Assembly (NCBI GenBank): GCA_030390025.1
Contig: JASTWF010000033.1
Location: 1,490,001-1,554,000 of the forward strand
Source of the DNA: Squalus acanthias
Taxonomy: Eukaryota
Direction: 5' to 3'
Length of the DNA: 64,000 nt
Of this stretch, positions 1-40,945 are shown piece after piece. The notes below the pieces were generated by a model that did not search any database, was not told the origin of the DNA, and saw only the letters and a list, made by a program, of their open reading frames with translations. Both the position numbers and the translations under genes were made by a program. Numbering within the stretch: the stretch's first letter is position 1; the number at the start of each line of letters is the position of its first letter.

Positions 1-3000
1 GTCCTCGCTCTTGGGTCCCGTGCTCGCTCCTGGGTCTCATCCTTGCTCCTGTGTCTCGTCCTCGCTCCTGGGTCCGGTCCTCGCTCCTGGGTCCCGTCCT
101 CGCTCCTGGGTCCCGTCCTCGCTCATGGGTCCCGTGCTCGCTCCTGGTTCCCGTCCTCGCTCCTGGGCTACGGTCTCGCTCCTGGGTCCCGTCCTCGCTC
201 CTGGGTCCCGTGCTCGCTCCTGAGTCTCATCCTTGCCCCTGTGTCTCGTCCTCGCTCCTGGGCTACGTCCTCGCTCCTGGGTCCAGTGCTCGCTCCTGGT
301 TCCCGTCCTCGCTCCTGGGTCCCGTCCTCGCTCCTGGCTCCCCTCCTCGCTCCTGGGTCCCGTCCTCGCTCCTGGGCTACGTCCTCGCTCCTGGGTCCCG
401 TCCTCGCTCCTGGGTCCCGTCCTCGCTCCTGGGTCCCTTCCTAGCTCCTGGGTCCCGTCCTCGCTCCTGGGTCTCGTCCTCGCTCCTGTGTCCCGTCCTC
501 GCTCCTGGGTCTCGTCCTCGCTCCTGGGTCCTGTCATCACACCTGGGTCTCGTCCTCGCTCCTGGGTCCTGTCCTCGCACCTTGGTCTCGTCCTTGCTCC
601 TGGGTCCCGTCCTCGGTCCTGGGTCCCGTCCTCGCTCCTGGGTCCCTTCCTAGCTCCTGGGTCCCGTCCTCACTCCTGGGCCTCGTCCTCGCTCCTGGGT
701 CCTGTCCTCGCTCCTGGGCCTTGGCCTCGCTCCTGGGTCCTGTCCTCGCTCCTGGGTCTCGTCCTCGCTCCTGGGACCCGTCCTCGCTCCTGCGCCTCGT
801 CCTCGCTCCTGGGTCCCGTCCTCGCTCCTGGGTCCCTTCCTCGCTCCTGGGTCCCGTCCTCGCTCCTGGGTCTCGTCCTCGCTCCTGGGCCTCGTCCTCG
901 CTCCTGGCTCCCGTCCTCGCTCCTGGGTCTTGTCCTCGCTCCTGTGTCCCGTCCTCGCTCCTGGGTCTCGTCCTCGCTCCTGGGTCCTGTCATCACACCT
1001 GGGTCTCGTCCTCGCTCCTGGGTCCTGTCCTCGCACCTTGGTCTCGTCCTCGCTCCTGGGTCCCGTCCTCGCTCCTGGGTCCCGTGCTCGCTCCTGGGTC
1101 TCGTCCTCGCTCCTGGGTCCCGTCCTTGCTCCTGGGCCTCGGCCTCGCTCCCGGGTCCTGTCCTCGCTCCAGGGTCCCGTCCTCGCTCCTGGGTCTCGTC
1201 CTCGCTCCTGGGTCTCGTCCTCGCTCCTGGGTCCTGTCCTCGCTCCTGGGTCTCGTCCTGGCTCCTGGGTCCCGTCCTCGGTCCTGGGTCCCGTGCTTGC
1301 TCCAGGGTCCCGTCATCGCTCCTGGCCCTCGTCTTCGCTCCTGGGCCTCGTCCTCACTCCTGGGTCCTGTCCTCGCTCCTGGGTCCCGTCCTCGCTCCTG
1401 GGTCCTGTGCTCGCTCCTGGGTCCTGTGCTCGCTCCTGGGTCCCGTCCTCGCTCCTGGGCCTCGTCCTCACTCCTGGGTCCCGTCCTCGCTCCTGGGTGC
1501 CCGTCCTCGCTCCTGGGTCCCGTCCTCGCTCCTGGGTCCTGTGCTCGCTCCTGGGTCTCGTCCTCGCTCCTGGGTGTCGTCCTCGCTCCTGGGTCCCGTC
1601 CTCGCTCCTGGGTCTCATCCTCGCTCCTGGGCCCCGTCCTCGCTCCTGGGTCCAGTCCTCACTCCTGGGTCCCGCCCTCACTCCTGGGTCCCGCCCTCAC
1701 TCCTGGGTCCCGCCCTCACTCCTGGGTCCCGCCCTCACTCCTGGTTCTTGCCCTCGCTCCTGGGTCCCGTGCTCGCTCCTGGGTCCTGTCCTCGCTCCTG
1801 GGCCTCGTCCTCGCTCCTGAGTCCCGTCCTCGCTCATGGGTCCCGCCCTCGCTCCTGGGCTTCGTCCTCGCTCCTGGGTCCCGCCCTCACTCCTGGGTCC
1901 CGCCCTCGCTCCTGTGTGCCGTGCTCGCTCCTGGGTCCCGCCCTCGCTCCTGGGTCCCGCCCTCACTCCTGGGTCCCGCCCTCACTCCTTGGTCCCGTCC
2001 TCACTCCTGGGCCTCGTCCTCGCTCCTGGGTCCTGTCCTCGCTCCTGGGCCTTGTCCTCGCTCCTGGGCCTTGTCCTCGCTCCTGGGTCCTGTCCTCGCT
2101 CCTGGGCCTCGTCCTCGCTCCTGGGACCTGTCCTCGCTCCTGGGCCTCGTCCTCGCTCCTGGGTCCCGTCCTCGCTCCTGGGTCCTTTCCTAGCTCCTGG
2201 GTCCCGTCCTCGCTCCTGGGTCTCGTCCTCGCTCCTGTGTCCCGTCCTCGCTCCTGGGTCTCGTCCTCGCTCCTGGGTCCTGTCATCACACCTGGGTCTC
2301 GTCCTCGCTCCTGGGTCCTCTACTCGCACCTTGGTCTCGTCCTCGCTCCTGGGTCCCGTCCTCGCTCCTGGGTCCCGTCGTCGCTCCTGGGTCCTGTCCT
2401 CGCACCTTGGTCTCGTCCTCGCTCCTGGGTCCCGTCCTCGCTCCTGGGTCCCGTGCTCGCTCCTGGGTCTCGTCCTCGCTCCTGGGTCCCGTCCTTGCTC
2501 CTGGTCCTCGGCCTCGCTCCCGGGTCCTGTCCTCGCTCCTGGGTCCTGTCCTCGCTCCTGGGTCTCGTCCTGGCTCCTGTGTCCCGTCCTCGGTCCTGGG
2601 TCCCGTGCTTGCTCCTGGGTCCCGTCATCGCTCCTGGCCCTCGTCTTCGCTCCTGGGCCTCGTCCTCACTCCTGGGTCCCGTCCTCGCTCCTGGGTCCCG
2701 TCCTCGCTCCTGGGTCCTGTGCTCGCTCCTGGTTCCTGTGCTCGCTCCTGGCCCTCGTCTTCGCTCCTGGGCCTCGTCCTCACTCCTGGGTCTCGTCCTC
2801 GCTCCTGAGTCCCGTCCTTGCTCCTGGGTCCCGCCCTCGCTCCTGGGCCTCGTCCTCGCTCCTGGGTCCCGCCCTCACTCCTGGGTCCCGCCCTCGCTCC
2901 TGGGCCTCGTCCTCGCTCCTGTGTCCCGCCCTCACTCCTGGGTCCCGCCCTCGCTCCTGGGTGCCGTGCTCGCTCCTGGGTCCCGCCCTCGCTCCTGGGT

Positions 3001-4542
3001 CCCGCCCTCACTCCTGGGTCCCGCCCTCACTCCTTGGTCCCGTCCTCACTCCTGGGCCTCGTCCTCACTCCTGGGTCCTGTCCTCGCTCCTGGGCCTTGT
3101 CCTCGCTCCTGGGTCCTGTCCTCGCTCCTGGGCCTCGTCCTCGCTCCTGGGTCCCGTCCTCGCTCCTGGTCCTCGTCCTCGCTCCTGGGTCTCGTCCTCG
3201 CTCCTGGGTCTCGTCCTCGCTCCTGGGTCCCGTGCACTTTCCTGGGCCTCGTGATTGCTCCTGGGCCTCGTCCTCGCTCCTGGGCCTCGTGATTGCTCCT
3301 GGGCCTCGTCCTCGCTCCTGGGTCACGTCCTCGCTCCTGGGTCTCGTCCTCGCTCCTGGGTCCCGTCCTCGCTCCTGGGTCCCGTGCTCTCTCCTGGGCC
3401 TCGTCATCACTCCGGGGCCTCGTCCTCGCTCCTGGGCCTCGTCCTCGCTCCTGGGTCCCGTGCTCGCTCCTGGGCCTCGTCCTCGCTCCTGGGTCCCGTG
3501 CTCGCTCCTGGGTCCCATCCTCACTCCTGGGCCTCGTCCTCGCTCGTGGGTCTCGTTCTTGCTCCTGGGTCCTGTCATCGCTCCTGGGTCCCGTCCTCGC
3601 TCCTGGGCTTCGTCCTCACTCCTGGGCCTCGTCCTCGCTCCTGGGTTTCGTCATCACTCCTGGGCTACGTCCTCGCTCCTGGGTCCCGTCCTCGCTCCTG
3701 GGTCCCGTGCTCGCTCCTGGGTCTCATCCTTGCTCCTGTGTCTCGTCCTCGCTCCTGGGCTACGTCCTCGCTCCTGGGTCCCGTCCTCGCTCCTGGGTCC
3801 CGTCCTCGCTCCTGGGTCCCGTCCTCGCTCCTGGGTCCCGTCCTCGCTCATGGGTCCCGTGCTCGCTCCTGGTTCCCGTCCTCGCTCCTGGGCTACGTCC
3901 TCGCTCCTGGGTCCCGTCCTCGCTCCTGGGTCCCGTGCTCGCTCCTGGGCCTCATCCTTGCTCCTGTGTCTCGTCCTCGCTCCTGGGCTACGTCCTCGCT
4001 CCTGGGTCCCGTCCTCGCTCCTGGGTCTCGTCCTCGCTCCTTGGTCTCGTCCTCGCTCCTGGGTCCCGTCCTCGCTCCTGGGTCTCGTGCTCGCTCCTGG
4101 GTCCCGTGCTCGCTCCTGGGTCTCGTCCTCGCTCCTGGGTCCTGTCATCGCTCCTGGGCCTCGTCCTAGCTCCTGGGTCCCGTCCTCGCTCCTGGGTCCT
4201 GTCCTCGCTCCTGGGCTTTGTCCTCGCACCTGGGTCCCATCATTGCTCCTGTGCCCCTTCCTCGCTCCTGGGTCTCGTCCTCGCTCCTGGGCCTCGTCCT
4301 GACTTCTGGTTCCCGTTCTCGCTCCTGTGTTTCGTCCTCGCTCCTGGGCTTTTTCATCGCTCCTGGGTCCCGTCATTGCTCCTGTGCCCCTTCCTCGCTC
4401 CTGGGTCCTGTCATCGCTCTGGGCCTCATCCTCGCTCCTGGGTCCTGTCATCGCTCCTGGTCCTCGTCCTCGCTCCTGGGTCCTGTCCTCCCTCCTGAGT
4501 CTCGTCCTCACTCCTGTGCCTCGGCCTCGCTCCTTGGTCCTG
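1..4542. repeat. 19-bp GC-rich tandem satellite (consensus GTCCTCGCTCCTGGGTCCC), about 240 units, running off the left edge
   Basis: The unit register shifts by 1 per 20 nt. Three units (57 nt) give the 19-aa repeat LLGPVLAPGSRPRSWVPSS seen in all + frames. The + strand has almost no A. Confidence 0.97.
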
Positions 4543-14115: not shown

Positions 14116-14316
14116 CAGCAGAAACAAACCCCCACTGTCAGAGTGAACATGGTTCAGTCCTGGATCTGATTTACAGCAGCAATAACAGCAGAATCAAACC
14201 CCCACTGTCAGAGTGAACATGGTTCAGTCCTGGATCTGATTTACAGCAGCAATAACAGCAGAATCAAACCCTCACTGTCAGAGTGAACATGGTGCAGTCC
14301 TGGATCTGATTTACAG
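14116..14316. repeat. 70-bp tandem repeat, about 3 copies, immediately 3' of the zinc-finger remnant
   Basis: CAGCAGAA(A/T)CAAACCC..GGATCTGATTTACAG at 14116, 14186 and 14256. Confidence 0.9.
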
Positions 14317-14705
14317 CTGTTGTCGCAGCAGGGTGGATGGCCGAGTGAATCCCTTCTCACACACGGAGCAGGTGACCAGCCTCTCCCCAGTATGAACTCG
14401 CTGGTGTTTCAGCAGGGTGGATGAACTAGTGAATCCCTTCCCACACACGGAGCAAGTGACCGGCCTCTCCCCGTGAACTCGCTGGTATGTCAGCAGGGTG
14501 GATGGCCGAGTGAATCCCTTCCCACACACGGAGCAGGTGAACGGCCTCTCCCCAGTATGAACTCGCTGGTGTACACTGAGGTTGGATGTTTGCCTGAACC
14601 CAGTCCCGCAGTGAGAACTCCTGAACGGTCTCACATCCGTGTGAACACGTTGCTGGAACTTTTATCCCACTTCCCGCAATCCAGGCATTTAAAGGCTTTA
14701 CAGAG
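14311..14705 (-). pseudogene. C2H2 (Kruppel-type) zinc-finger array remnant
   Basis: [17 protein letters not shown] linkers, about 4-5 fingers. Lost Cys/His ligands and a break between ORFs 14631-14975 and 14311-14634; the upstream side is cut by a CR1 fragment. Confidence 0.8.
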
Positions 14706-20197: not shown

Positions 20198-21099
20198 TCA
20201 TCCTTTAATGAATTTTACAGTCAGAGTAAAGGAATATTTCACCACATTCTTTATCTGCTCTCTGAACTTAGTCTGGGTCACGCAATAAATCCCAGTGTTC
20301 GTGCAGCAACTCAGCAGCTGCAGCATGAATCCCATTTCCCTTACATAAGTAGGTGGCATTACATACACATTCCCGAAATAACTCATCCGGTTCCATATAG
20401 AGAACATCATAATCACTGCCCATAACAGAATGAAATTGCCCGAGATAGCAAGCAGTAAAATGATGGATTTCCTGCGGCTCTCCATCTCTGCGTCTCTGGG
20501 ACTCTCCCCACTGCTGGGACCCCGGAGTCTCCTGCGGGCTCTGCTGGCCACTAAAATGTGTCTGACGGTGACAGCATTGAGCAGCAGAATCAGAACAAAT
20601 GGGATTCCCGGGGTGAGAATATGATAAAGGAACTCGATTGCTGTCCAGAATAGTGACAACTGAATATCCAGTTTTACATAACAAAACCAGGGGACGTTCA
20701 TAAGCCAATATTCATCTGTGAACATAAAATACCAGAAAATGTTCTTTAAACAGCTCAGCACTGTCACTGTGCCCAGAACCACAGCCGCCGTTTTCTCGGT
20801 GCAATATTTAGTTTTCAGCTTCTGGCAACAAATGGCCATAAATCGATCAAAGGTGAAAGTGACGGTGAACCAGACAGAACAGTCTGTGGCTGCATAAAGC
20901 AGGGCGGCGTGAATATTACACACGCGGAGGGACAGCACGAAAAGGAACTGTTCCCAATACAGAATCGGAATCTGCCTCAATATCAGGTCGAGGATAACGA
21001 CCAGTAGATCCGCCGTTGCCATGGCCACCAGGTAGCGAGTGACACATTTGGAGAGACCACACTTTCCCCGAGACAGGGTCACAATCGTCACTAAGTTAA
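20198..21099 (-). CDS. Class A orphan GPCR, GPR139/GPR142-like, main coding exon (TM1 C-half to C-terminus)
   Basis: Open 297-aa frame with AMATADLLV (TM2), FTFDRFMAIC (DRY-like) and SCCTNTGIY (NPxxY-like). Acceptor tttcccttcctcacag at 21100-21115; phase-1 junction gives ..VP|VNLVTIVTLSRGKCGLS. Confidence 0.9.
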
Positions 21100-22409
21100 C
21101 TGTGAGGAAGGGAAATAAACAGGGAAATTATACATCAGGATGGGAGCAGAAGCAGCGTTTTCATGGAATTCGGGATGAAATCTGCAATTAATTAGCGACA
21201 TCCAATTATATAATCTAATTCTATTATCTTTGGAGCTGAATACAGGGTTTATTGTAAGAATAATCGATAATACATTGTAGAATCAATAAATCAAATGGGG
21301 ATAAATACAACATGAAAGTAACAGATGTTTGATCAAGGAGAGATTAAATGATAGATCTTCATTTAGCCCAGCAGACAAAAGCACCGCCCGAGGCACTAGG
21401 GACACAAAGGACCAGAACCTCTCAGGAAGCCTTCCTGTCCCGGGATCAGTCAGCATTTGGAGCGGTGCAATTCGCTTCTGTGCCCCTGTGTTAGGGAGGG
21501 GGAAATCCGGCTTGTATTCATGCTCCTGGTTAGAATATCCATTATATTTAGAACTGAAAATGAATGCAACAGCAATATACAGAAACAGCAATCTTGGCAT
21601 ACAATAATTACAGGCAATTGTATGTAAAATGTACGGATGTAATATGCAAATGCTAAGATAATAAATACAAGTGCACTGCAGTTATAAAGATAACTGGGCT
21701 GTAAGGAATGTTTTGAAGTTTGAACTTTCTACAGTTTTGTTGAAATACACAAATTGTAGATCATTGAAAGGAAGGTTTTCCAAATCACATTTCAAAAAAT
21801 GGACTCTGAATTAAAATAAATAGTTATCATTGACCAGGTAATGTCCCACTAAATGCATTTATTAGCATCGAAATCAGCCGATTTATCCCACAGGCAAAGT
21901 TATGGCAAACGCTTTTGTAAAGTTTCTGAACACAAATGGAAGAGATATATCCTTGTACTTTTTCACCTGTTGTTTTCCACTTGTGCAGAGAATAGCAGAC
22001 GTTAAAATAGGAAAGGGTTTTCTTATGCTCAGTACTTCAGTTACAATCAGCTGGAATTGTTTATCCTGAAGTAAAGCAGAAGGCAATAGAGAATCACTCT
22101 GGGTCTCACTGAGAGATCCACTGAACTGTGACAGACTGGCATGAGATTCAATTACAAATTCAAAACAGTGAATGGAAATAAATGTATTGAAACCAGGTTG
22201 AATGAACATGTTGTGAGAATGCAAATTATCCTTGTAATCCTTTTGTAACCATCAGAAGTAGTGCCACTACTGCAGAACTGGATATGGTGGGACAGGAGAC
22301 ACTGACTGGAACTGAATGATTAGCGGATATTTCCGACATTTAAAGATGTGTTTGTGATCTGCCAGGAATTGTTCCTGTGACTCTGTAAGTAACCATACCG
22401 AGCATTAGG

Positions 22410-22525
22410 TGAAAACAAAACCAAAATACTGCGGATGTTGAAAATTTTAAATGGAAACAGAAAATGTTGGAAATATTCAGCCAGTCAGGCTGCATCTGTG
22501 GAGAGCGAAACAGAGGTAACGCTTT
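22410..22525. mobile_element. Penelope terminal-repeat-derived fragment (intronic)
   Basis: AAATACTGCGGATG..GAAAATGTTGGAAATATTCAGC..GCATCTGTGGAGAG matches 59575-59630; similar pieces lie near 35160-35290 and 50600-50670. Confidence 0.65.
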
Positions 22526-22529
22526 ATAG

Positions 22530-24850
22530 GAACATAAGAAAAGGAGTAGGCCATACAATACTTCTTGCATTTCATAGGATTCCATTACATAGGATAAACG
22601 GGACAGAAACAGACCATTCGGCCCAACCAGTCCTGCCGGCTATTATACTTCACTCGAGCGTCCTCCCCTATGTCCTCATCTCAATCTATTAACATAACCC
22701 TCTGTTCCCTTCTCCATCATATGCATGTCTAGCTTCCCCTTAAATGCATCTGTAGTATTCCGTTCAACCACTCGCTGAGGTAGAGAGTTCCACATTCTCA
22801 TCACTCTTTGGGTAAATAAGTTTTTTCTGAATTCCCTATTGGAATTCTTGGTGACTATCTTATATTGATGGCCTCTAGTTATGCTCTACCCCACAAGTGG
22901 AAAGATTCTCTCTGTATCCACACTATCAAAACCTTCCATATTTTTAAAGGCTTCTATTAGGTCACACCCTTTCTTTTGTCAAGAGAATAGAGACCCAGCC
23001 TCTTCATCCTTTCTTGATATGCATATCCTCGCATTTCTTTTATTATCCTTGTAAATCTTCTCTGCATCCTCTCCAGTGACACTATATCCTGTTTTTATAA
23101 TATGGCGTCCAAAACTGTACGCAGTACTTTAGCTGTCGTCCAACCAAGGTTCGATACAGGTTTAGCATGAATCTACTTTTTAATTCTGAACCTCTCGAAA
23201 TAAACTCTAGCGCTTGGTTTGCTTTGATGATGCCCTTGACAACCTCTGTTCAACTTAAGTGATTTGTGTATTTGTACTCTTAGACCCCTTTGTTCCTCTA
23301 CCCACCTAGTAATCATGGCCCCAGCATTGAAGTCTACATCATTGATATATACCACATAAGCAAAGGACTTATTTCTGAGCCCTACCGAACCCCACTGCAA
23401 GCAGCCTTCCAGGGACAACTACACCCGTCGACCATTCCCCTTTGCTTCCTGCTACTGAGCCAATTTTGGATCCAACTTGCCACTTGCCCTTGGATCCCAT
23501 GGGCTTTTACTTTTTTGACTGACCTGTCATGTGTGACCTTGTCAAAGGCCTTGCTAATATCTATGTGGAATACATTAAATGCATTACCCTCAAGACACTC
23601 CTCGTTACCTCCGCAAAAAAGGTAGTCATAAACGAACTTCCATTAACAAATCCATGCTGACTGTCCTTGATTAATCCATGCCTTTCTAACTGCCGATTTA
23701 TACTGGTCGTCAGAATTTGTCCAATGATTTTCCACCACCGAGGTAAGGCTGACTGGCCTGTAATTGGTCAATCCCTTTCTCTCTTTTTAAAAAACTTCAT
23801 CCGGGTCTCGGGTTTTATCTACATTCAATGATACTAAACTCCTTAATATTTCCTCTCTCACTATGTTTATCTCATCTAATATTTTACACTCCTCCTCCTT
23901 AACAACAATGTCTGCTTTACCCTACTGCTGTGAAGACAGATGTAAAGATTTTATTAAGAACTATACCCACGTCTTCTGCCTTCACAGATATGTTAACTTT
24001 ATGGTCCCTAACAGGCCATACTCTTACTTTAGTTAACCTCTTGCTCTTAACGTATTTCTAAAACATCTTTGGATTTTCCTTGATATTACTTGCCATTATT
24101 TTTTCATGACCTTTCTTTGCCTTTCTAATTGCCTTTTTAATTTCAATCCGCCACGTTCGATACTCCTCTGAGCTTTCTGCAGTATTGAGCTCTCGGTGTC
24201 TGACAAAAGTTTCCCTTTTTTTCCTTCTCATACCCTGTATGCCCCTTGACATCCAGGAGGCTCTAGATTTGGAAATCCCGCCCTTTTTCTTGTGGGAACA
24301 TATTTGCTCTGAACCCTCACTATCTCCTCCTTGAATGCCTCCCACTGCACTGACACACATTTCCCATCAAGCAGCTCTTTCCATTCCACTTTTGCTAAAT
24401 CACATCTCAGCTTAGTTAAACTGGCCTTTCCCCAATTGAGAAATTTTACACCTGGTCTATCTTTGTCCTTTTCCATTAGGGGAGAATTAATATCGATGTT
24501 CAAAATCATGATGTGTTTTGATAGATTAAGTAATTCTGTTTCTAATGACAGAACCGTCAGTAACCAGAGGAGACAAATTTAAGGTAATTGGCAAAAGAAC
24601 CAGAGGAGAGACGAGGAGAATGTTCTTTATGCAGTGGGTTGTTGTGATCAGGAATGCAATGTCTGAGAACGTGGTGGAAGCAGATTCAATAGTAACTTGC
24701 GACATGCAATTGGATAATTAGTTGAAGGGAAAATATTTACAGGGCTCTGGCAAAATAGTAGGACTAATTAGATAGCTCTTTCAAAGAGACAGCACGAGCA
24801 CGATGCACCGAATGGTCTCCTTCTGTGCTGTACCATTCTATGACTCTATG
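22530..24850. mobile_element. Cluster of decayed CR1 fragments in the GPCR intron (mostly minus; plus-strand 3' end at ~24480-24850)
   Basis: CR1 ORF2 peptides in ORFs 24058-24360 and 24228-24509; CR1 tails. Confidence 0.8.
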
Positions 24851-25384
24851 AGCAAGAGACAGAAAGAGAGAGAGAGAAGAGGTAGGGACAGAAAGAAAAA
24901 TAAAGACAGACAGACTGGGAGAGGTACAGAGGGACATATATTAACTTTAAAAGGGGAATTGAATAAATACTTGAAGGGGAGCAATATGCAGGAATATGGG
25001 AAAAGAGCAGGGGAATGGGACTAATTGGAGGGGTGAGGCCATGATGGATTTGATCTTAAGGATGAGAATATTAAAATCGAGGTGTTGCCGGATCGGGAGA
25101 CAATGTCAGTGGTCATAGTAGCGATGGCTGAATGGAACTTGGTGCAAGTTCGGATATGGTTAGCACATGAGTTCTAGTTTATGGAGGCTTTTAACTTGTA
25201 GGCTTTGGTCTTCCCAAGATTTAAAGGACAAGCACAATAATACAGTGATACATGGTTAACAGATCTAATTGCTGGATAGAGAGACTTACCAGGAACAACA
25301 ACCGCAGCAAGGAGGGGAGAGTAAATGAGAAGAACAGTAATACAGTAAAACATGGTTAATAGCAGAGCTGACAGAGACCCTTAC

Positions 25385-25661
25385 CAGGAACACCCACAGC
25401 AGCAAGGATGGGATAATAAATAAAAAGCACATCAATACAGTAAAACATGGTTAATGGAATAGTTGGATCGATAAACTTTCCAGGAACACCAAAAGCAGCA
25501 AGGAGAGGATAGTAAAAGTGTTGAATAATCACAAGTGCGTCATAGATCCGGTTTTCTAATTGTAGTCTATCATAATTTGCAGCAATATATTCCATCTCCC
25601 CGATGAAAGCCCTGCCCATTGTTGTAACATTCAAATCTACTGTTCTCTGATTCTGATCCAT
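25385..25661 (-). CDS. GPCR first coding exon (N-terminus + TM1 N-half), using the duplicated in-frame donor at 25384
   Basis: ATG in ACAATGG context at 25661 (alternative at 25619); YYPLLAAFGVP and YYPILAAVGVP motifs. First donor is G|GAAAGT (mutated), second is G|GTAAGG. 277+902 nt gives 392 aa. Confidence 0.7.
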
Positions 25662-25759
25662 TGTTGCAACATTCCAATCTGCTGTTCTCAGATTCGGACT
25701 CTGTTAGTGCCGGAAGTGATGCTCTCACTGACATTGTGGGATGACACATTGAAAGGAGT

Positions 25760-25955
25760 CCCTTTAATAGAAGAGGGAGACACTGCACTGATACAATTAG
25801 AGTCCATGGAGACTGACATTCATTACAGTAACTGAACAAACAGCTTCAGTTTATCCGTGGAGACTGACATTCATTACAGTACCTGAACAAACAGCTTCAG
25901 TTTATCCGTGGAGACTGATATTAATTACAGTAACTGAACAAACAGCTTCAGTTAA
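25760..25955 (-). promoter_or_regulatory. Putative GPCR promoter: TATA-like TATTAAA about 100 nt upstream of the ATG plus three 51-bp tandem repeats
   Basis: CTTTAATAG at ~25762-25770; TCC(A/G)TGGAGACTGA repeats at 25803, 25854 and 25905. Confidence 0.45.
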
Positions 25956-35652: not shown

Positions 35653-36057
35653 CACATGCTGGAGGAAGCTACAGGAAGCACTGGTGTCAGCCTCGGAGCA
35701 GGCCGTGGCCGTGTTATCACATGCTGGAGGAAGCTACAGGGAGCACGGATGAGAGCCTTGGAGCAGACCATGGGCCTGTTATCACATGCTGGAGGAAGCT
35801 AGAGGGAGCACTGATGTCAGCCTGGGAGCAGGCCGTGAGCCTGTTATCACATGCTGGATGAAGCTACAGGGAGCACTGGTGTCAGCCGAGGAGCAGGCCG
35901 TGGGCCTGTTATCACATGCTGGAGGAAGCTACAGGAAGCACTGGTGTCAGCCTGGGAGCAGGCCGTGAGCCTGTTATCACTTGCTAGAGGAAGCTATAGG
36001 GAGCACTGGTGTCAGCTTGGGAGCAGGCCGTGGGCCTGTTAACACATGCTGGAGGAA
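35653..36057. repeat. 65-bp minisatellite, left part (about 6 units)
   Basis: CACATGCTGGAGGAAGCTACAGG.. at 35653, 35718 and onward. Confidence 0.92.
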
Positions 36058-40699: not shown

Positions 40700-40945
40700 G
40701 CTACAGGGAGCACTGATGAGAGCCTGGGAGCCGGCCGTGGGCCTGTTATCACATGCTGGAGGAAGCTAGAGGGAGCGCTGGTGTCAGCCTGGGAGCAGGC
40801 TTTGGTCCTGTTATCACATGCTGGAGAAAGCTACAGGGAGCACTGGAGTCAGCCTGGGACCAGGCCCTGGGCCTGTTATCACATGCTGGAGGAAGCTACA
40901 GGGAGCGCTGGTGTCAGCCTGGGAGCAGGCCGTGGGCCTGTTATC
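40700..40945. repeat. 65-bp minisatellite, right part (about 4 units)
   Basis: Resumes with GCTACAGGG exactly where the left part stops (GGAGGAA). Confidence 0.92.

Follow-up and report, generated by a model that had tools for sequence, protein, structure and literature searches.

A GPR139-like receptor gene of Squalus acanthias with an apparently mutated exon 1 splice donor and two duplicated donors downstream

A G-protein coupled receptor (GPCR) gene of the shark Squalus acanthias is assembled with GA in place of GT at the end of its first coding exon, and two further copies of the exon end, each with a GT, follow in the intron. This raises the question of whether the downstream copies rescue the gene, as proposed in a preliminary description of the locus, or whether they are older features of a receptor copy that is being lost. 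To answer it we analysed the window, a stretch of 64,000 nucleotides from contig JASTWF010000033.1 of assembly GCA_030390025.1 (positions 1,490,001 to 1,554,000). The gene lies on the minus strand and consists of exon 1 (25481..25661) and exon 2 (20198..21099), with an intron between them. The features of the locus, from upstream to downstream in the direction of the gene, are:

25803..25953, no strand assigned: short 51/26-bp tandem array upstream of exon 1, adjoining a repeat remnant
25763..25769, minus strand: TATA-like word 108 nt upstream of the ATG, with a putative promoter role
25481..25661, minus strand: coding part of exon 1, 60 codons plus 1 nt, encoding the N-terminus and the outer half of TM1 and ending at the ancestral donor position
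25479..25480, minus strand: dead donor 1, GA in place of GT (CTG/GAAAGT), base as in the assembly
25423..25480, minus strand: first intron-start copy (I1), 58 nt, stop-free in the exon 1 frame, with an ATG at 25448 that shares the frame of exon-end copy 2
25385..25422, minus strand: exon-end copy 2, encoding the family-consensus peptide of the TM1 outer half, 31/38 identity to copy 1
25383..25384, minus strand: donor 2, GT (CTG/GTAAGG), phase 1, in frame, 7/9 consensus
25328..25384, minus strand: second intron-start copy (I2), 57 nt, with a TAA in frame at 25358-25356, followed by an ATG at 25353
25290..25327, minus strand: exon-end copy 3, with two radical residue changes (Y>S, G>V) relative to the majority of the three copies
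25288..25289, minus strand: donor 3, GT (CTG/GTAAGT), 8/9 consensus, intron-proximal, 66 nt downstream of the stop
25227..25289, minus strand: third copy of the intron start (I3), about 63 nt, exceeding I1 and I2 by 4-5 nt
21100..25226, minus strand: rest of the intron, about 4.1 kb, containing high-copy repeat remnants and ending in a pyrimidine tract and AG (21101-21100)
20198..21099, minus strand: exon 2, intact frame from the inner half of TM1 to the C-terminus, matching Pfam 7tm_1

The receptor gene and its family

Exon 2 matches the 7tm_1 profile over positions 2-260 of 260 with a score of 64 bits (curated cut-off 30.5), as expected for a class A (rhodopsin-like) GPCR. The exon 1 region was matched at 56% in a tblastn comparison with a homologous protein model (P0054), and the N-termini of homologs are consistent with it. 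A 42-nt tandem repeat at 25616-25695 encodes a 14-residue N-terminal repeat with a glycosylation sequon, and its copy number is highly variable among homologs. A second AG at 21091, 9 nt inside exon 2 and in the phase of the acceptor, could remove three TM1 codons.

A search with the exon 2 protein returned 2485 matches at E <= 1e-20 among 4122 candidates (90% clustering), and all 120 of the matches listed were shark models named 'probable GPR139'. Identity to the Squalus gene over exon 2 was 70-79% for most of the listed matches, RefSeq/UniRef models of a probable G-protein coupled receptor 139 from Heptranchias perlo, Heterodontus francisci and Pristiophorus japonicus. These models have the same N-terminal motif and are split within TM1 at the same place as the Squalus gene, which differs from them in having GA at donor 1. 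By identity and by the exon structure that splits TM1, the Squalus gene is one paralog of this shark expansion. In a tree of 182 exon 2 sequences, none from a bony vertebrate, it clustered with 13 Pristiophorus models (support 0.87). Summed contig depth over exon 2 was 3e4-1.6e5, compared with 56 for a contig matching the locus exactly; depth is not copy number, and the values fit a very large family in the Squalus genome. The size of the family, as seen in the number of matches at 90% clustering and in the high summed depth, is of more interest than a single splice lesion.

Human GPR139 has two exons with the intron in TM1, and in mammals it is a single-copy orphan receptor. When P0054 was compared with solved structures, human GPR139 (PDB 7VUG and 9M42) was the only match (E 3.9e-13), with the TM1 motif aligned, and exon 2 alone had no match among solved structures at 1e-10. 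Human GPR139 therefore appears to be the nearest solved and human relative, reached through P0054 only, and is distant from the Squalus gene, which belongs to a large expansion. Relatives of GPR139 and GPR142 are treated in the accessible text of PMC8514136 and PMC6504862. In open literature listings, which do not cover subscription papers, we found no paper on the shark GPR139-like expansion or on the donor cassette described here. Neither is mentioned in the accessible parts of 10.1101/2025.06.08.657570 and PMC10620051, although the expansion might appear in a supplementary table of tandem clusters that accompanies the first of these; the part of PMC11772838 that was available contains nothing relevant here.

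For comparison of N-termini we used 272 of 279 homologous proteins, those with an exon 2 anchor; one protein (P0274) was wrongly anchored. These models are automatic predictions and represent a small part of the family. Exon 1 ends with one motif directly before exon 2 in 217 of the 272. The other 55 have N-termini foreign to the family, some of them resembling LINE fragments, and many annotated family members may be without a usable exon 1.

Several features of the window lie apart from the gene. Positions 1-4540 are occupied by a 19-bp GC-rich satellite (about 239 copies), which is extremely skewed between the strands and contains long spurious ORFs. A C2H2 zinc-finger-like frame (81-bp repeat, three copies) is found next to a 70-bp repeat at 14116-14661 on the minus strand, and one 65-bp tandem repeat forms two arrays about 5 kb apart, at 35653-36057 and 40700-40945. 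Reverse-transcriptase and GIY-YIG-like frames at 60015-62116, on the minus strand, presumably belong to a Penelope-type retroelement.

Three exon 1 ends and their donors

The end of exon 1 is indeed present three times, as the preliminary description had noted. Read on the minus strand, the copies end in GTTCCTG at 25481, 25385 and 25290, at intervals of 96 and 95 nt, and are followed by GAAAGT, GTAAGG and GTAAGT respectively. Tandem Repeats Finder reported a period of 95 with 2.6 copies at 25271-25516. The 38-nt exon end was matched with 31/38 and 32/38 identity at the two further copies and nowhere else in the 64-kb window at 24/38 or better, indicating that the repeat did not arise by chance. 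The repeated unit consists of the 38-nt exon end and the start of the intron (57-63 nt, about 58), so approximately 19 of the 32 codons between donors 1 and 2 are former intron. The exon-end copies are 82-84% identical to one another; in the intron parts, where there are also indels, identity is about 74-79%.

Donor 1 is mutated in the assembly, where A at 25479 gives GA for GT. The models with a single motif right before exon 2, together with the true exon 1 coding sequence that lies ahead of copy 1, identify donor 1 as the ancestral donor. Both points agree with the preliminary description, and so does the reading of donor 2, which lies 32 codons downstream of donor 1, in frame and with no intervening stop; translation from the ATG at 25661 with splicing at donor 2 gives 392 aa without a stop. 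Splicing at donor 1 would yield 360 aa. Donor 3 had been placed out of frame behind a TAA. The frame from ATG 25661 does stop after 101 aa when donor 3 is used, but donor 3 is not without a frame of its own: the ATG at 25353, 2 nt past the TAA at 25358-25356, is joined by it to the frame of exon 2 and would give 321 aa. Re-initiation following a 101-codon frame is unlikely. By consensus, no other GT in the region scores as well as donors 3 and 2, of which donor 3 is the better. The last base of the acceptor AG is at 21100.

Age and distribution of the duplicated unit

If the duplication had arisen to rescue this locus, it should be specific to it. It was instead found in paralogs of the same species and in a model from another shark. 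In two DNA runs, X1 and X5, on two samples of two studies, contigs of 93.9% (X1, depth 108) and 95.4% (X5, depth 151) identity span the point where an intron start meets exon-end copy 2, extending 66+82 letters to either side of it in X1 and 90+41 in X5. Their divergence from the Squalus locus points to paralogs rather than alleles. Joints that step back by about 90 nt suggest paralog intron starts in which features of I3 and I1 are mixed; such joints do not give the number of units.

Among the 272 models, only P0056 of Heptranchias (XP_067833419.1) shows the duplicated unit, which is there predicted as the first exon. The model starts with the unit in the same register, matching at 13 of 21 aa and at 8 of the first 10 residues, which are intron-derived; the best of the other 271 models reached 4 of 10 at these positions. 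The exon-end copy in P0056 is degenerate. P0056 sits in a Heptranchias clade whose listed members are 91-95% identical to it and have an ordinary exon 1 annotated, and it is not sister to the Squalus gene (74% identity). Residues 1-22 of P0056 correspond to the duplicate of intron start and exon end, with its own ATG; probably this first exon is false and the true exon 1 of its locus is broken.

The cassette is therefore either old in the subfamily or arises repeatedly at one breakpoint. As the copies are old (74-84% identical) and common to the Squalus paralogs and the Heptranchias model, the spare donors most likely predate the loss of donor 1 and existed before it as silent intron. We infer this order, and the proposal that the duplication was itself a rescue event is not supported.

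Donor use, predicted products and competing readings

Two sets of contigs that may derive from RNA left the bin 25306-25511 without cover, and a joint from 21099/21100 to a donor was absent from the 15 joints listed of 159, which is not evidence on expression. The listed contigs of these sets on exon 2 were 92-98% identical to it and are thus probably from paralogs; one of them runs unspliced across the acceptor.

Nonsense-mediated decay is triggered when a stop lies more than 50-55 nt upstream of a junction, and in an mRNA spliced at donor 3 the stop would lie 66 nt before the junction. In mammalian substrates with two strong donors at least 45 nt apart, almost all splicing takes place at the intron-proximal donor, according to the available part of PMC3413131. 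This rule would favour donor 3, and with it an mRNA that contains the stop and is prone to decay; the rule is a mammalian one and may not hold in sharks. Like the competing duplicated 5′ splice sites described there, the Squalus gene has two near-consensus donors, here 95 nt apart, but it differs from them in being a natural shark first exon with an in-frame stop between the sites. The accessible text of PMC3510495 reports that intronic donors behind in-frame stops are common and normally unused in human cells, where stress switches such latent donors on. Suppression of this kind would favour donor 2. If the gene is transcribed, a mixture of donor 2 and donor 3 products is most plausible. The class of mechanism is already known: duplication across a splice site makes spare sites whose use lengthens the coding sequence (PMC3443670, in the part available). 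The Squalus gene differs from the latent 5′ splice sites described there in that no new intron is formed; the exon would grow by 96 nt if the site were used.

The 392-aa product had been envisaged as a receptor with an additional hydrophobic segment at its N-terminus. The doubled motif was found in none of the 272 homologous models, so the form is not a known variant among them, and no junction that would produce it was seen; its use as a receptor is thus not borne out. Nor is the extra membrane segment. By hydropathy alone (Kyte-Doolittle, 19-residue segment, values for every second window), the highest value over the first motif copy is 1.42, compared with 1.8-2.0 for TM1, and it is followed by charged and proline residues, so that it is not clearly an eighth helix. 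TM1 itself would be rebuilt from copy 2 with windows of 1.9-2.0, as hydrophobic as normal, and the intron-derived residues would lengthen the hydrophobic stretch ahead of it (1.7-1.8). The 392-aa form retains the one N-glycosylation sequon, at residue 11. A word search for the read-through segment, a weak search, found none among 20 candidates. The sole HMMER match to it in 1.84 billion representatives, P0280, is a repetitive ORF (36%, pairwise E 0.002) and was rejected as a chance match.

Whether the gene is under selection or in decay was examined in the spacer, the exon-end copies and exon 2. Shuffled spacers were free of stops in 31% of cases, and with a further factor of one third for the frame an open in-frame spacer is expected in approximately 10% by chance, which is unremarkable for a family this large. 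Copy 2 has two synonymous changes and one conservative change and keeps the consensus peptide, whereas copy 3 has two radical changes; this leans towards rescue, with three changes in each copy to go on. Exon 2 has 2 departures among the 114 columns where conservation reaches 95%, and 59 of 112 homologs have at least 2, with similar results at thresholds of 80-90%. Exon 2 is open and deviates no more than the family median, with neither the frame disruption nor the excess change of a pseudogene, and any decay must therefore be recent. Damage is limited to the donor and possibly the TATA-like word. This word contains two extra nucleotides in 87% (X1) and 55% (X5) of the paralog depth of the two DNA runs, and the Squalus copy therefore appears to carry a 2-nt deletion, which is a possible promoter lesion. 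Exon 2 differences from paralogs of the same species comprised 8 non-synonymous and 5 synonymous changes in the 13 rows listed, with a neutral synonymous share of 23%, and 6 non-synonymous to 3 synonymous in those listed rows where at least 77% of the depth differed in both DNA runs; the listed subset is biased, and these counts do not discriminate between selection and decay.

On balance we favour the view that the gene is a paralog in a birth-and-death family, with a dead donor and latent duplicate donors, and that it is likely decaying. A segment of about 95 nt over the boundary of exon 1 and intron 1 would have been tandemly duplicated twice long ago, perhaps by slippage at short TTTA-like microhomology, leaving two spare donors within the intron. 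The GT to GA change at the authentic donor, which is seen in the assembly, would have followed. If the gene is transcribed, the spliceosome would pick between the two latent donors: donor 3, stronger and intron-proximal, would give an mRNA that is a target of nonsense-mediated decay, and donor 2 would give a receptor lengthened by 32 residues at its N-terminus. A mixture would be the likely result, with little normal receptor in it. The open frame to donor 2 would be incidental, and the copy would be drifting towards a pseudogene. The intact exon 2, the consensus kept in copy 2 and the reported silence of stop-preceded donors all weaken this reading.

The same three observations are in favour of a functional rescue, in which donor 2, the nearest intact donor, would be used predominantly to make a working 392-aa receptor; a pre-existing spare, rather than one arisen to that end, would have become essential. 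TM1 would then be built from copy 2, and the 32 extra residues would lie in the extracellular N-terminus or lengthen TM1. This is possible, though we doubt it. Donor 2 is canonical, in frame and stop-free (about one chance in ten). The family-consensus peptide survives in copy 2, exon 2 has an unbroken frame and is conserved to the usual degree, TM1 of the 392-aa form has its normal hydrophobicity (1.9-2.0), and donor 3 may be suppressed by the stop that precedes it (PMC3510495, accessible text). Yet none of the 272 models has the 392-aa form, donor 3 is both the stronger donor and the intron-proximal one, selection cannot be demonstrated from only three changes in each copy, and the homologous copy in Heptranchias is degenerate. 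A wider version, in which an old spare-donor cassette present across shark orders acts as a latent backup, its in-frame spare being recruited on donor mutation to create a new 32-residue extracellular or TM1 segment while donor 3 sets the level through nonsense-mediated decay, seems to us distinctly unlikely. Least probable of all is the built-in switch of the preliminary description, with receptor level set by the choice between donor 2 (productive) and donor 3 (decay). The anatomy suits it, as one donor is in frame and the other, 95 nt away, is preceded by a stop, and stress activates latent donors in human cells (PMC3510495, same text), but copy 3 is decaying, any unselected duplicate donor would look alike, and we saw no sign of regulation.

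Two other readings concern donor 1 itself, and both are very improbable. The GA could be an error of the assembly, or an allele that is segregating; most chromosomes would then have an intact donor 1, with copies 2 and 3 as silent decoys in the intron. The base is known from the assembly, one long near-identical contig ends only 3 nt past it, and with many near-identical paralogs a collapse is possible; however, a contig that matches over 162 nt with 0 differences bears out the assembly nearby, around donor 3, and I1 and I3 also disagree at several further positions within the first 20 nt. Marginally less probable again is that the GA donor is still spliced, as a non-canonical GA-AG intron, to give the normal 360-aa receptor. 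The site is otherwise good apart from position +2 (8/11 consensus) and, like the GA-AG introns of FGFR1-3, has GA at the donor in a U2-like context; such introns occur in vertebrate FGFR genes and ITPR1, as given in the accessible text of PMC4176328. According to the same text, the FGFR case requires a canonical GT donor 6 nt upstream, and the Squalus site has no strong helper GT there, the GTs at 25489 and 25487 being of poor consensus. Two strong GT donors would also compete downstream, and GA-AG introns are frequent only in a copepod and a tunicate, judging from the available part of PMC7072748.

As a single locus the gene matters little, since loss of a donor near latent donors is ordinary in large birth-and-death families, and with very many family members such coincidences are expected. 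For annotation, the lesson is that a duplicated unit with its own ATG and donor can be miscalled as a first exon, as has probably happened in P0056. If RNA showed donor 2 to be dominant, the gene would illustrate how an exon is naturally extended by a duplicate already in place, and would provide a clean test, outside mammals, of intron-proximal preference against suppression of stop-preceded donors. The backup-cassette reading, if true, would mean that receptors of this giant and little-studied family have acquired new N-termini by a route taken repeatedly.
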